A stretch of 40,464 bases of DNA from Methanomassiliicoccales archaeon (GCA_050014375.1 JBEKDM010000003.1:1-40464); one strand, 5' to 3'; counted from the stretch's first letter, positions 25,497-29,845 are shown. Numbers and translations: made by a program. Notes: generated from the letters alone by a model not told the origin.

Positions 25497-25871
25497 TCAG
25501 CCACCTATCATTTTTTTCCCTAGCTCGGTCAGCACGTAAACGCGCCACCTTTTCCGAGGAGATGAGGAGATCAATTTTGCCTCTTCCAGTATGCTGAGAT
25601 GATAGGACAGCCCCGAATCTGTCAATTCAGTGATTTCTTTCAGCAGGCAGGGACAAAGATCAATCACCAGGAGAGCGTGCAAAATCTGCAGCCGGATCGG
25701 GTCAGAAACCGCATGAAAACGTTCAGCTTCTGAAGCAAGTTCCGTCTTGTTGGGCACTTGATTCTTCAACCCATCCAACCCTCCTTGCTGGCGAAGGGCC
25801 GCTTCCATCTCATCAGGAAGGTTCATCACGTCCTTACAGCATTCTTTCTTTGATGTACTCTTAACGGCCAT
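25497..25871 (-). CDS. arsR: ArsR/SmtB-family repressor
   Basis: SDPIRLQIL, DLCPCLL (CxC metalloid site), LSYHLSILEEAKLI and an N-terminal CC pair. Start at MAVKS. Confidence 0.85.
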   Translation of the reverse strand: MAVKSTSKKECCKDVMNLPDEMEAALRQQGGLDGLKNQVPNKTELASEAERFHAVSDPIRLQILHALLVIDLCPCLLKEITELTDSGLSYHLSILEEAKLISSSPRKRWRVYVLTELGKKMIGG

Positions 25872-25881
25872 TCCGCATCCT

Positions 25882-26298
25882 CTACTCCTTGGGTAATATA
25901 AGATTGTCGATAATCCACTTATTGATTTCATTCCTGCTCTTCCTAAATGCAGTCAATCTGTCTTGCTCGGGCCCCACAACGCTTGACGGATCGTCGAAAC
26001 CATGATGTATCTGCTCTTTGCCTCCGGGGAAGAAAGGGCAAGTCTCGGCGGCATTTGAGCAGACCATGACTACATAGTCGAATTCCTGCCCCTTGAACTC
26101 AATAAGCCCTTTGGATCTTTGAACAGAGATATCAATGTCCAGCTCGGCCATGACCTCAATGGCCAGGGGATGTACCTGACTAGGCTTGGTACCGGCGCTC
26201 TTCGCGCTGAGGGCTTCTGAGTAAAGGCCATTTACCAGCCCTTCGGCCATCTGGGACCGGGCTGAGTTGTGTATGCAGATAAACAGTACAGTTCTCAT
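25882..26298 (-). CDS. arsC: Arsenate reductase, thioredoxin-coupled LMW-PTP family
   Basis: P-loop CIHNSARSQMAEG, SAGT and VC...ETCP redox pair, FDDP. SD aaggtga before ATG 26298. Confidence 0.9.
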   Translation of the reverse strand: MRTVLFICIHNSARSQMAEGLVNGLYSEALSAKSAGTKPSQVHPLAIEVMAELDIDISVQRSKGLIEFKGQEFDYVVMVCSNAAETCPFFPGGKEQIHHGFDDPSSVVGPEQDRLTAFRKSRNEINKWIIDNLILPKE

Positions 26299-26349
26299 TC
26301 GATCCTTCACCTTCGATAGATGATATGGATAACAATGGTTAGGAACTTA

Positions 26350-26399
26350 TTTATATCTACCAAATGTTTTAGTTCAATAATAATTGAAATATCATTTGG
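26350..26399. promoter_or_regulatory. Divergent ars promoter with probable ArsR operator
   Basis: TTTATAT box at 26350-26356, then nested inverted repeats CCAAATG(26360)...TTCAAT-aata-ATTGAA(26373-26388)...CATTTGG(26399) between arsC and acr3. Confidence 0.7.
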
Positions 26400-26427
26400 C
26401 CAGGTCCTGGAAAATGGTGGAAATTTA

Positions 26428-27546
26428 ATGAAAGAGACCACAGGAGAAAACAGCCCGCCGCCAGGTGGATTGAAGAAATTGTCGTTCTTGAACAGGTACC
26501 TTACCGTCTGGATATTCGCCGCCATGGGGCTGGGCGTTGGACTGGGTGTCCTTATTCCAGGCTTGGCCGATTCCCTGAACAAGTTGAGCGTCGGCACGAC
26601 CTCCATCCCGATCGCCATCGGTCTGATATTAATGATGTATCCTCCTCTGGCCAAGGTAAAGTACGAGGAACTTGGGCAGATCACAAAGCAACCCAATGCG
26701 AAAAGGATGTTCACCACTTCCTTGATGTTGAACTATGTCGTCGGTCCGCTCCTGATGTTCGCTCTGGCCTGGATATTCCTGCCCGACCAACCTCTTTACC
26801 GGATCGGTCTGATCCTGACCGGTGTAGCCAGGTGTATCGCCATGGTCCTGGTCTGGAACCAGCTAGCTGAAGGAGACTCCGAGTATGTCGCCATCCTCGT
26901 TGCTTTGAACTCGATATTCCAGATAGTGCTGTACTCGTTCTATGCTTACTTCCTGATCAGCGTACTATCAGATGTCGTATCCCCAGGTTCCGGGGTGATC
27001 GTGGACATATCCATCGTATCCGTGGCCATCAGTGTGATCATCTATCTGGGTGTACCTTTCTTCGCGGGCATCATTAGCCGATACACTCTGAGACCGAGGA
27101 TGGGTGCTGACTGGTATGATAACAAGTTCATGCCGGTGGCAGGAAAGATTTCCCTGCTTGCATTGCTCTTCACTATCGTAGTAATGTTCTCGCTAAGGGC
27201 CCAGTCAATTGTCGACACGCCTTTTGATGTGATCCGGATCGCCATCCCGCTGCTGGTCTACTTCACCATCATGTTCCTCTTATCATTCTGGCTGTCCATG
27301 AAGTTCAAGTTCGACTATCCTCACGCGGCGGCGCAATCCTTCACCGCGGCAAGCAACAACTTCGAACTGGCGATCGCCGTGGCGGTAGGCGTGTTCGGTA
27401 TCAGTTCAGCGGTGGCCTTCGCTACGGTCATCGGTCCGTTGGTGGAGGTGCCCGTGCTCATTTCACTGGTGAACCTATCGCTTTACTTCCGCCGGAAATA
27501 TTACGACAAGAACGGGTTGATTAAGGGCGTGGCTCAGGATGGCTGA
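26428..27546 (+). CDS. acr3: Acr3-family arsenite efflux pump
   Basis: KLSFLNRYLTVWI, MMYPPLAKV, GVARCIAMVLVWN, AASNNFELAIAVA and GPLVEVPVL. Confidence 0.95.
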   Translation: MKETTGENSPPPGGLKKLSFLNRYLTVWIFAAMGLGVGLGVLIPGLADSLNKLSVGTTSIPIAIGLILMMYPPLAKVKYEELGQITKQPNAKRMFTTSLMLNYVVGPLLMFALAWIFLPDQPLYRIGLILTGVARCIAMVLVWNQLAEGDSEYVAILVALNSIFQIVLYSFYAYFLISVLSDVVSPGSGVIVDISIVSVAISVIIYLGVPFFAGIISRYTLRPRMGADWYDNKFMPVAGKISLLALLFTIVVMFSLRAQSIVDTPFDVIRIAIPLLVYFTIMFLLSFWLSMKFKFDYPHAAAQSFTAASNNFELAIAVAVGVFGISSAVAFATVIGPLVEVPVLISLVNLSLYFRRKYYDKNGLIKGVAQDG

Positions 27547-27778
27547 AAGAATGGACCCGCGAACCAAGGAGTTAGTGGCCATAGCCGCTTCCGTCGCCGG
27601 GCATTGCCAGCCTTGCTTCCGCCATCATCTTTCGAAGGCGATGGAGCTGGAAATTAGTGAAGAAGACATCCGTGAAGCCGTGTCTTTGGCCGGAAGGATA
27701 AGTGGTGCTGGAGATCAGCGCATGGTTGAGTTCGTTGAAAACATCTTAAAGGAAGGAAAAAAGGAGGGAGTGAAATGA
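27539..27778 (+). CDS. AhpD/carboxymuconolactone decarboxylase (CMD)-like protein with CxxC
   Basis: KELVAIAASVAGHCQPCFRHH...EDIREAV. Overlaps the acr3 stop. Confidence 0.85.
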   Translation: MAERMDPRTKELVAIAASVAGHCQPCFRHHLSKAMELEISEEDIREAVSLAGRISGAGDQRMVEFVENILKEGKKEGVK

Positions 27779-28389
27779 CCATTGAAGAGATAGACCTATA
27801 CAAACTGAAAGCGGACGATATTGTGAAGTACCTGCCTGAGGGCGACAGCTCGAGCTGCGGAACTAAGAGCTGGACGGAGTTCGCCCAGATGCTGATCGAC
27901 AAGAAGGTCAAGGCAGTGAGCTGCGCGAAGATCGACAAGAAGATGGCCGAAGCCATCGATGCAGTGCTGAGCATCGATATCCATCTGCCGGAGAGCGATC
28001 CCATGCAGCAGAAGGTGCCAGAGAAGCTTTTCGAGTACAATTCGCCTGACGAGAACTCGCCCGTGGTTATTACTAGCAATTCCATCATCACACACCAGAT
28101 CCTGAAACTGGTTTTCGACACGGCCAAGGTCAAGGTCTTCGTCATACCAGTTGATACCAACGGCTTTACCATGGACAACTCCGCGGTGCAGGGGACCCTA
28201 ACACCGATGGCGGCGATGAAAGCTATTAATGAGAGCGGGATAGCCAACAAAACCTCCGCGAGAAGGGCGTTGATATCCGGTCTGGCCGGCGACCAGAAGA
28301 GCGGTCTAGAGCGTATCACTCGATGGAGCCTGGAGATCGGACCGGTCAGCGGCTTCGAGCTGCCGATGTACCTCTTTGCGAAAAGCTGA
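27775..28389 (+). CDS. Truncated CdhE/AcsC (CFeSP gamma)-like protein: degenerate Fe-S domain plus corrinoid-binding domain
   Basis: N-terminus DIVKYLPEGDSSSCGTKSWTEFA...SC resembles the CdhE DIYKxLPxTNCxxCGxxxCxAFA..CP domain. The remainder (PDENSPVVITSN, VDTNG, ESGI, ISGLA, WSLEIGP..ELP.YL) resembles the CdhE/HgcA corrinoid domain. ATGA overlap with the CMD gene. Confidence 0.75.
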   Translation: MTIEEIDLYKLKADDIVKYLPEGDSSSCGTKSWTEFAQMLIDKKVKAVSCAKIDKKMAEAIDAVLSIDIHLPESDPMQQKVPEKLFEYNSPDENSPVVITSNSIITHQILKLVFDTAKVKVFVIPVDTNGFTMDNSAVQGTLTPMAAMKAINESGIANKTSARRALISGLAGDQKSGLERITRWSLEIGPVSGFELPMYLFAKS

Positions 28390-28466
28390 GAAATCCTGAC
28401 AGTATAACTGGGCTGTTATAGAACTCTAGTCAGAGTGAGGAAGTTCCAATCACTTAAGGTGTTCAA

Positions 28467-28730
28467 TTGGCCCGTATCGTGAAAGTGAGGAAAGAGCAAT
28501 TAGCCCCGTGGCTGAATGGGGAGGTAGAACGCCACTGCATCCGTTGCGAATCCGTAGTAGAAAGGATGGATCACGTCTGCCCGGTCTGTCATGCCCCTCT
28601 CCGTAAGGAATGCCCTATCTGCCATTACTGGGTAGAGATGGATGTTACTTTCTGCATCTCCTGTCGGCATGGGTTCCCATTACCTCCATTACCAAAGGCG
28701 ACAATAAAGTTGTGGCATATCAAGGAATGA
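28467..28730 (+). CDS. Double zinc-ribbon protein
   Basis: Four CxxC pairs (CIRC, CPVC, CPIC, CISC). TTG start after SD aaggtg. Confidence 0.7.
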   Translation: MARIVKVRKEQLAPWLNGEVERHCIRCESVVERMDHVCPVCHAPLRKECPICHYWVEMDVTFCISCRHGFPLPPLPKATIKLWHIKE

Positions 28731-28848
28731 TTCCTAATCACCCTTTCATCTGGTCTTTATTCGTATGTATCTCTACCCTGCGAAATCTTTAGTGTATGAT
28801 AGACTAATAGAACCTAACCAAGGTCTGTGAGGTATTGGTCTGCTAAAC

Positions 28849-29845
28849 ATGAGGGAGCGATTGCTGTCTGCTTTGGACCGCGGAACGGTGGATCGAGCGC
28901 CCTGCGTCAGTCCAGGCCAGACGGCTATTGCGGACCTCCAGCGGGCTGTGGGGGCGGAATGGCCTAAAGCACACCAAAACGCAGAGCTCATGACCAGGTT
29001 GGCCCTGGCTTCCGTCACCTTGGGCAACCAGGAAGGCACCAGGGTTCCCTTCGAGACTACAATGGATGCCTCGGCCTTCGGGGGGTTGAGATGGGGACAC
29101 CATTTAGGCATCCATATGTCATAGGACATCCCCTGGTCGATCAGGAAGCAGTGGACCGTGCCACGGTTCCGAACACCCGGAAGATGGCCGGGCGCCTGTT
29201 GTTCTGGAAGCAGTGCTCCAGCTACGACGTGAAGAGGCGCCGGTACTGTGTGCGGTCACCGCCCTATTCACTCTAGCCTGTTTCTTGCGCGGGGAGCGGG
29301 ACACTCTGATGGACCTCGTCATCAATCCTGCATTACTCGAGAAGGTGTTGTTTCTGGCCGAACAGTGGGGTGTTTCCTTCATACGAGAGGCGGTAGATGC
29401 GGGTGCCGATGTCATAGTCATCGAGGACACCTGGGCCAGCGGAGAGATCCTGTCGCAGGAGCAGTACAAAATCTTTGCCCTACCAGGCGAATAGATCCTG
29501 GCTCGGGCGGCGCATGAGATGGGTGCTAGCTCCATCCTTCACCAATGTGGCCGCCCCGGGAGCAACCTTGAACTTATGGCGGACAGCGGCGCGGACGGCC
29601 TCACCCTCCACCAGACAATGAATGTGATCGAGACCAAGAAGATACTTTCAGGCCGTTGTTCCATTGTTGGCAATCTTGACCCTCGGTCCATCGTTCAACT
29701 GGAACCCAAGGATATTAGAGCGCTCAGTACTCACTGCTTGGAGGAAGGGATCGACGTATTAGCCCCAGCTTGTGGGCTGGATCCAGCAACTCCGGTAAGG
29801 AACTTAAAGGCCATAGCGGAGGCCACACATCGATTCAAAAGGTAA
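28849..29845 (+). pseudogene. MtaA/CmuA-family methylcobamide:CoM methyltransferase (URO-D fold), disrupted
   Basis: Three frames join into one ~332-aa MtaA-like protein: RVPFETTMDASAFG / EMGTPFRHPYV..HP / DGRAPVVLEAV...AGADVIVIED...ILHQCG...GNLDP...APACG. Frameshifts at the G6 run 29080-29085 and near 29180, plus an in-frame TAG at 29492-29494. Confidence 0.85.

Follow-up and report, generated by a model that had tools for sequence, protein, structure and literature searches.

A short CFeSP-type corrinoid protein in the acr3 operon of a Methanomassiliicoccales archaeon, a candidate carrier for arsenic methyl groups

Here, we describe an arsenic-resistance (ars) locus at positions 25497-29845 of a 40,464-nucleotide stretch of DNA from a Methanomassiliicoccales archaeon (GCA_050014375.1 JBEKDM010000003.1:1-40464; hereafter the window), in which the arsenite efflux gene acr3 is followed on the same strand by genes for an AhpD/CMD-core protein (CMD), a short corrinoid protein (CP) and a double zinc ribbon protein (DZR), and by a broken mtaA. 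The original prediction took this locus for an arsenic-inducible module of thiol reductase, corrinoid carrier and MtaA-type methyltransferase acting on arsenic. A comparison with other genomes finds CP repeatedly beside ars genes in the order and in a distant bacterial lineage, and tentatively points to CP as a cobamide carrier that would exchange methyl groups with arsenic.

Genes, operator and corrinoid protein of the locus

Genes were called from a list of open reading frames (ORFs) and from Pfam and NCBIfam profile scans, giving the following features:

25497-25931, minus strand: arsR, ArsR/SmtB repressor (Pfam HTH_5, 36.2 bits; NF033788, 58.9 bits against a cut-off of 55)
25882-26310, minus strand: arsC, low-molecular-weight-phosphatase-type, thioredoxin-coupled arsenate reductase (Pfam LMWPc, 65 bits; CX5R motif)
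26320-27546, plus strand: acr3, arsenite efflux permease (TIGR00832, 412.7 bits against a cut-off of 282.8)
26347-26388, plus strand: acr3 operon promoter and putative operator, an archaeal TATA-like box at about 26347-26356 and then the palindrome TTCAATAATAATTGAA at 26373-26388
27539-27778, plus strand: CMD, AhpD/CMD-core protein of 79 aa (PF02627, 46.8 bits against a cut-off of 23; CQPC, a CxxC motif)
27775-28389, plus strand: CP, short corrinoid protein of 204 aa (PF03599, 46.5 bits, C-terminal part only, residues 79-191)
28467-28730, plus strand: DZR, double zinc ribbon of 87 aa with four CxxC pairs (PF12773, 33 bits)
28849-29845, plus strand: mtaA pseudogene in three URO-D/MtaA fragments (28849-29124, 29213-29494 and 29519-29845)

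All genes named in the original prediction are present at these coordinates, with arsR-arsC divergent from acr3; the overlaps of acr3 with CMD (8 nt) and of CMD with CP (4 nt), and the gaps of 77 nt between CP and DZR and 118 nt between DZR and mtaA, are exactly as it had them. The locus is classed as an ars operon by an Acr3 above its equivalog cut-off with arsR and arsC adjoining. Reading of the sequences places a CPC motif within the DNA-binding region of ArsR and a CC pair at its N-terminus, ArsC scores 104.4 bits with TIGR02691 (under the equivalog cut-off of 174.3), and the N-termini of orthologues suggest that the true start of acr3 likely lies near 26428. The source genome is assembled in 186 contigs (94% complete) and carries a second acr3, on contig C4, without CP, arsR or operator. 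Closest homologues of the locus bear Methanomassiliicoccales source names, and near-identical copies were found in peat metagenome runs only, with no RNA run among them.

Upstream of acr3, the palindrome TTCAA-N6-TTGAA begins about 16 nt after the conserved TATA-like box. Box and palindrome precede acr3 in 28/30 of the acr3-CP cassettes found in the order (see below), the other two being cut by contig ends; the palindrome also recurs ahead of other ars genes in the cassette flanks and is present at none of 14 CP loci outside ars clusters. Since the palindrome accompanies the cassettes and is absent from the non-ars CP loci, we infer that CP belongs to the ArsR regulon. On sequence grounds, acr3, CMD, CP and DZR form a single operon with a predicted ArsR-type operator, divergent from arsR-arsC. 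The 2.3-Mb source genome holds six TTCAA-N6-TTGAA sites, only the one at this locus lying at ars genes; the sole other copy with an AT-rich spacer is at G000:C9:12386. A scan for bacterial-type promoters and terminators, which is not meaningful for an archaeon, returned one promoter-like site against 4.6 expected.

Matched against the PDB, the CP family profile finds the CFeSP large subunit (2h9a, E 2.4e-35); one part of the match covers the Fe-S domain at the N-terminus (chain residues 6-58), the other covers the corrinoid domain (chain residues 315-443, 91.5 bits), and the TIM barrel between them (chain residues ~59-314) is skipped. An AlphaFold2 (AF2) model of CP (pLDDT 91.4), searched with Foldseek against the PDB, retrieves five CFeSP entries (best 4c1n_G of the CFeSP-activator complex, 1.6e-10) and an HgcA model (8.5e-6), with the next match at E>0.1. 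Profile, model and structure search thus bear out the CdhE-like protein of the original prediction as a genuine CFeSP/HgcA-type corrinoid-domain protein. As read from sequence and predicted fold, CP is a small soluble protein that corresponds to the CFeSP large subunit reduced to its N-terminal and corrinoid-binding domains, without the TIM barrel of ~250 residues; the chain stops at the corrinoid domain and has no transmembrane domain. Homology and the RamA and DUF1638 neighbourhoods described below suggest that it binds a cobamide.

Scores of 98.4 bits with NF003195 (CdhE/AcsC; cut-off 306) and 32.3 bits in a partial match to NF040863 (HgcA; cut-off 275) do not reach either cut-off, and two of the four Cys of the N-terminal CX2CX4CX16C 4Fe-4S motif are retained. 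CP has no match at E<=0.01 to the MtaC-type B12-binding families PF02310 and PF02607, both of which are matched by the MtaC neighbour of a CP paralogue. At the cap-helix position aligned with the CdhE and HgcA of the source genome, window CP has Asn, CdhE has Thr and HgcA has the Cys of its NVWCAAGK-type motif, Thr and Cys being the residues under the cobalt; a second CP clade has His here and bacterial relatives have Met. By these features CP fails the defining marks of both CdhE and HgcA and is a member of a separate family of ~200 aa, with 218 matches at E<=0.001 among 1.84 billion representatives. The label 'acetyl-CoA synthase gamma subunit', under which sources annotate these proteins, is a family-level mis-annotation.

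CP shares with the CFeSP large subunit (CdhE/AcsC) the homologous N-terminal and C-terminal domains and, through its paralogues, a pairing with the ASKHA-type activase RamA that recalls CFeSP-RACo. Unlike CFeSP, it has no small-subunit or CODH/ACS genes adjacent, its 4Fe-4S motif is degenerate in the window's clade, and the source genome has a separate full-length CdhE of 441 aa. With HgcA/HgcB it shares the corrinoid-binding domain and a small Cys-rich partner gene directly downstream, whereas the partner of CP is a double zinc ribbon and HgcB is a 2x[4Fe-4S] ferredoxin. The source genome also encodes a canonical HgcA of 322 aa (contig C21, 1414-2382; cap-helix NVWCAAGKG and a C-terminal membrane domain), followed by an hgcB-like ferredoxin gene whose product has a C-terminal CC (~2380-2699) and preceded by a small AbrB-like gene, with no ars genes beside it. 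The Cys and His residues of DZR are conserved among orthologues. A Foldseek search with the AF2 model of DZR (pLDDT 75.1) returned only generic zinc-ribbon and zinc-finger rows at E>0.06 and nothing rubredoxin-like, and prediction of a CP-DZR complex gave no support, which says nothing either way on binding.

Neighbourhoods and descent of the corrinoid protein

A search of 201 genomes of the same order gave 47 places with a small CP in 41 genomes; these were taken with flanks of up to 7 kb, and neighbours were mapped by tblastn and ORF clustering and named by Pfam/NCBIfam. At 30/47 places acr3 lies directly upstream on the same strand. Three further places have another ars gene adjacent and no acr3 seen (arsR-CP-arsC, arsR-CP, and CMD-CP on a 3-kb contig), ten adjoin RamA (TIGR04270, 749 bits), which is clustered with a split CobW next to mtaC-mtaB, and four have neither acr3, other ars genes nor RamA. 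Chance is far from explaining the acr3-CP arrangement, which 29 genomes share across 12 genera and 3 families: CP stands right after acr3 in 27 of the 75 genomes with an acr3 above cut-off, and after a fragmentary acr3 in two more. The neighbourhood comparison that the original prediction had proposed as its own check therefore finds homologues clustered beside ars genes.

Intergenic gaps in the cassettes are mostly overlaps or a few bases. CMD is found at 18/47 CP places, its first Cys missing in a few orthologues, and the ars-side neighbours include an ArsE-type thioredoxin (12 loci), DUF6951 (12), an ArsP_1 permease (11) and ArsA (6). DUF1638, which bacterial mutant fitness ties to RamA-type B12 reactivation in the available portions of two sources (bioRxiv 10.1101/192971; PMC12478193), directly follows DZR at the cassette end in 7 loci. 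The DUF6951 protein (~110 aa, three conserved Cys) lies beside the ArsE-type thioredoxin and ArsP_1 permease in its 12 ars loci (L035, L038, L045, L046, L048, L051 and others) and is a possible As(III)-binding protein. In four cassettes (L036, L047, L049 and L054) acr3 appears split or has an in-frame TAG, which may reflect decay, or amber read-through in this pyrrolysine-using order.

In a maximum-likelihood tree of 46 CPs and 7 distant rows (the L079 pseudogene being left out), a 26-row clade (support 97/90) contains 25 ars-linked rows, and a 13-row clade (support 100/100) contains ars-linked and RamA-linked copies intermixed, with paralogue pairs within one genome 72-77% identical. All four Cys of the CX2CX4CX16C motif are present in 0/24 complete sequences of the first clade and 13/13 of the second. 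DZR follows CP at 24/26 places in the first clade and 0/21 elsewhere (24/47 in all). Because both are confined to a single clade, loss of the Fe-S motif and gain of DZR count as one evolutionary event. Among 401 genomes sampled elsewhere in the phylum, only full-length CdhE of 445-450 aa was found outside the order.

A distant bacterial CP lineage, traced in metagenome contigs and bearing the source names Desulfomonile tiedjei and Desulfomonilaceae, is only 26-36% identical to window CP and shows the same three contexts. Ars genes are present at 7/23 loci (CP-arsR-acr3-arsC; ArsP_1 then CP; acr3 then CP; CP then acr3), CP lies directly before mtaA at 6/23 (three of them continuing with mtaC and mtaB), and RamA occurs at 3/23; the other 7/23, mostly on short contigs, have none of these. 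Linkage to acr3, arsR and arsC is thus kept across the archaeal order and turns up again in this lineage. The bacterial ars-type loci also hold thioredoxin, DsbD_TM, an FeS protein, TauE and a CCG protein. In a further bacterial clade, acr3 lies within the flanks of 1/80 loci, and the neighbours are otherwise of many kinds (response regulator, NTP transferase, Mur-ligase-like, PilZ, histidine phosphatase, AICARFT), giving no functional lead.

Much of the ars-linked count reflects shared ancestry, since most ars-linked copies form the one 26-row clade. Together with the bacterial clade almost free of ars links, this is what would be expected if CP had no functional tie to arsenic and were a passenger fixed beside acr3 by descent and riding on the ars promoter. 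We regard this as very improbable: the linkage outlives rearrangement (arsR-CP-arsC without acr3, CP before acr3, ArsP before CP) and occurs also in the second archaeal clade and the distant bacterial lineage, the start/stop overlaps are conserved, and 45/46 CP copies examined have open frames.

The RamA-linked paralogues bring in another reading, in which CP is an all-purpose helper that holds cobamide for the RamA/DUF1638/CobW machinery and arsenic is not a substrate. In one of them, in the source genome (L061, contig C118, 1-7549), a CP 48% identical to that of the window directly follows RamA; the genes upstream encode a CobW GTPase and a separate small His-rich protein resembling a split CobW C-domain, and the cluster is convergent with mtaB, a layout seen in 10 loci. 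The ars copy would then be an isoform induced by arsenite, tolerant of it and lacking an Fe-S cluster (As(III) is well known to attack Fe-S clusters and vicinal thiols); it would keep the corrinoid methyltransferases of a methyl-reducing methanogen loaded and active, or sequester reactive cobamide, during As(III) efflux. Consistent with this are the position of paralogues directly after RamA and split CobW beside mtaCB, the near identity of ars- and RamA-linked copies in some genomes and their intermixing in the tree, the loss of the 4Fe-4S motif in the main ars clade, and DUF1638 at the cassette end. However, in families f6 and f7 no small CP besides the ars-linked copy was found with this query, so that there would be no housekeeping copy to back up; the second clade sits in ars operons with its Fe-S motif complete; and both the link of CMD to ArsM-AhpD and the partly complementary distribution of ArsM, considered below, are left unexplained. 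We judge this reading unlikely.

The broken mtaA

A DNA alignment with two intact orthologues from the same genus (L035 and L038) locates three lesions in mtaA: 4 nt are missing near 29083, 1 nt is missing near 29180, and an in-frame CAG has become TAG at 29492-29494. The gene is broken, as the original prediction had it, and the lesions amount to two frameshifts and a TAG. TAG may be read in part as pyrrolysine in this order, and mtaA is disabled whatever the reading of TAG because of the two frameshifts. The intact orthologue L035 scores 269 bits with NF004889 (cut-off 244); the window copy has no intact frame. Contigs of two other runs (X2 and X3) match the window wherever they cover the lesions, an X5 contig of low depth has insertions that restore the frame, of G behind 29079 and of C behind 29175, and an X4 contig has T>C at 29492, the unbroken state; depths are low (2.2-7.4), and below depth 5 a contig standing alone could be in error. 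Assembly error as the cause of the breaks was rejected on these contigs, low as the depths are. Because other runs show both broken and unbroken states, the decay looks real, recent and polymorphic.

mtaA follows only 4/30 acr3-CP cassettes, all in the window's genus: it is intact in two species (~118 nt past DZR), reduced to an N-terminal remnant in a third and broken here, and it was not found with this query in two further species of the genus. In the third species (L034), a ~3-kb insertion with a membrane-protein ORF on the opposite strand parts CP from DZR, which keeps the mtaA remnant adjacent. The source genome has four intact MtaA paralogues elsewhere; the one that follows a B12-radical-SAM gene on contig C67 shares 77-94% identity with the fragments. 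A methanol methyltransferase pair lies on the window's own contig about 24 kb from the ars locus, as a partial mtaB and mtaC (3-1031 and 1376-2161; 75% and 64% identical to MtaB and MtaC of relatives). Being confined to one genus and repeatedly lost or broken there, MtaA is not a core part of the cassette and is instead an optional, genus-level add-on, decaying in this strain. From the three-part module first proposed, the corrinoid protein, its ars linkage and the CMD helper remain, and MtaA drops out of the core.

The fuller form of that module, in which CMD, CP and MtaA make up an arsenic-inducible machine and MtaA catalyses both half-reactions of methyl transfer between methylarsenicals and coenzyme M (CoM), is modelled on MtsA/MtsB, where MtsA performs both half-reactions for methyl sulfides. 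The set of corrinoid carrier, MtaA-family zinc methyltransferase and RamA activase is like that of MtaABC and of MtsA-MtsB with RamA, and CP paralogues lie in mtaCB/RamA clusters or, in bacteria, directly before mtaA-mtaC-mtaB. CP is nonetheless not a B12-binding protein of the MtaC type, and the ars cassette has no MtaB-type substrate methyltransferase. The intact mtaA in two species, the DZR-mtaA pairing that persists in the third despite the insertion, and the CP-mtaA pair in 6/23 bacterial loci all argue for the three-part machine, as does the 2-bromoethanesulfonate (BES) sensitivity in enrichments of demethylation of trivalent dimethylated arsenic, DMAs(III), by a Methanomassiliicoccus isolate, reported in the accessible part of PMC10579292. 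Against it, mtaA is rare and decaying behind the cassettes, the bacterial CP-mtaA pairs sit in mtaCB clusters and not in ars clusters, and the source genome retains the close intact paralogue on C67; we find this reading quite improbable.

Arsenic methyl exchange by the corrinoid protein

The locus contains no arsM, as had been noted, and the absence extends to the whole source genome, in which no ArsM match reaches the cut-off (best 66.6 bits against 263) and none is found at E<=1e-25. That best match, considered as a possible selenoprotein ArsM, was rejected, being an ordinary class-I methyltransferase ORF of 271 aa. In the order, ArsM is above the curated cut-off in 40/201 genomes, and in some host-associated genera arsM directly follows acr3. 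The available text of PMC7824343 states that arsM was not found in Methanomassiliicoccales genomes; an order without arsM is rejected by these 40 genomes. Among the 75 acr3-bearing genomes, ArsM is above cut-off in 5/27 with acr3-CP and 28/48 without, counts made by hand over related genomes that are not independent. This partly complementary pattern is suggestive of alternative modules. The cassette resembles ArsM clusters, including those with ArsM-AhpD fusions, in the company of acr3, arsR and arsC and of a CxxC AhpD-type helper; it differs in having no S-adenosylmethionine (SAM)-binding fold, with a cobamide as the proposed methyl donor, and in that ArsM and CP coexist in some clusters.

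We tentatively favour, while stopping just short of calling it probable, the reading that CP is an ArsR-controlled cobamide carrier that would exchange methyl groups with arsenic in either direction, with net methylation as a substitute for ArsM slightly ahead of demethylation. CP would bind a cobamide, which the RamA/DUF1638-type machinery of the cell would reduce to Co(I), and would then act as a methyl carrier, CH3+ passing between cobalt and arsenic. In the methylation direction, CH3-Co(III) and As(III) would give a methyl-As(V) species, which a CxxC helper (CMD, or thioredoxin-like proteins in relatives) would reduce to the trivalent form; in the other direction the reverse reaction would act on methylarsenicals. 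Trivalent products would leave through the co-translated Acr3 and, in relatives, also through ArsP-type permeases. DZR, in the main clade, would probably stand in for the lost Fe-S domain or hand over As(III), and MtaA, where present, would link CP to methyl-CoM.

Methyl exchange is favoured because CFeSP-type corrinoid domains are known only as methyl carriers, because CMD matches an AhpD domain that occurs fused to ArsM, because CP is distributed in partial complement to ArsM, and because published chemistry and physiology fit. The CMD match is partial, to the AhpD part of NF041537, the NCBIfam model for an ArsM/AhpD selenoprotein (E 3.9e-9), and agrees with the helper role first assigned to this protein. 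Among the publications, in the portions available, Methanomassiliicoccus luminyensis is described as demethylating DMAs(III) by enzymes not known (PMC10579292), a review describes methylation of arsenic by MtaA with methylcobalamin (PMC13262295), and hgcAB is described as often flanked by acr3, arsC and arsR (PMC7438021) and as controlled by an arsenic-responsive ArsR-like regulator (PMC7438021; 10.1101/2022.10.17.512643), a neighbourhood like that of CP and a control like the one predicted for CP.

Several observations weigh against methyl exchange with arsenic. No substrate:corrinoid methyltransferase is conserved in the cassette, whose constant partners are thiol-redox proteins and permeases; none occurs in the bacterial ars-type loci, where thiol-redox proteins and permeases fit a redox role equally well; and mtaA follows the cassette in a single genus that repeatedly loses or breaks it. 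The further bacterial clade has acr3 at only one of its 80 loci. Close paralogues adjoin RamA in methanol-methyltransferase clusters, in one clade intermixed with the ars-linked copies at the identities given above, so the chemistry of CP would be generic, not arsenic-specific by sequence. Cobamide binding by CP itself is argued from homology. Two genomes (G038 and G094) have CP in the same gene cluster as ArsM, and CP is for that reason not simply an ArsM replacement. Finally, the demethylation by the isolate was slow and ended at the trivalent monomethylated form, MMAs(III), according to the accessible part of PMC10579292.

The same partners are the ground for a redox carrier, in which cobamide with an Fe-S or zinc-ribbon partner would feed electrons to CMD, the ArsE-type thioredoxin, DsbD or ArsC, or would directly reduce pentavalent (methyl)arsenicals to forms that Acr3 or ArsP export, with no methyl group moved. 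Permeases and thiol-redox proteins, not methyltransferases, are the constant neighbours in archaea and bacteria, a natural protein of 383 aa (P0169) fuses a short CP to FeS and ferredoxin domains, and HgcA likewise needs a dedicated ferredoxin. Yet the corrinoid domain has methyl carriage as its one known role, in the bacterial lineage CP repeatedly has mtaA directly behind it, and a thioredoxin route already serves ArsC. Predicted structures (Atlas) also include a cluster of look-alikes from Chloroflexota, a lead only, which combine a CP-type domain with class-I SAM methyltransferase domains in one protein (544 aa); a homologue search for longer forms of CP returned only five full-length CdhE-type proteins and did not recover this fusion. 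A redox carrier seems to us rather unlikely.

Beyond methyl exchange by the single protein lies a wider proposal, which we consider possible but doubtful, that CP stands at the centre of an arsenic methyl-transfer system that depends on cobamide and not on SAM, and that would be the anaerobic equivalent of ArsM (methylation), of ArsI (demethylation) or of both; it would be the missing demethylation enzyme of Methanomassiliicoccus, and metalloid methyl transfer would be native to the corrinoid-domain superfamily. In the open-access full texts searched, no publication was found that describes a corrinoid protein as part of an ars operon in methanogens, and the closest published parallel is the hgcAB-ars neighbourhood. 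Alongside hgcAB, the cassette gives an independent second example of a corrinoid protein of the CFeSP type lying among ars genes, and so bears on the native role of HgcA. It also offers the first functional handle on the widespread, unstudied look-alikes of ~200 aa annotated as acetyl-CoA synthase gamma subunit.

Anaerobic arsenic methylation and demethylation set arsenic speciation in paddy soils and peat, and hence bear on rice straighthead disease. A part in the demethylation is ascribed to methylotrophic methanogens, Methanomassiliicoccus above all, with enzymes described as not known in the available portions of two sources (PMC10579292; bioRxiv 10.64898/2026.08.27.747368). The question of the demethylation enzyme becomes directly testable with the cassette, because its four genes, small, expressible and predicted to be under ArsR control, form a conserved and well-delimited set that cultured relatives carry. 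If true, native metalloid methyl transfer by the corrinoid-domain superfamily would explain the recurrent adjacency of hgcAB to ars genes.

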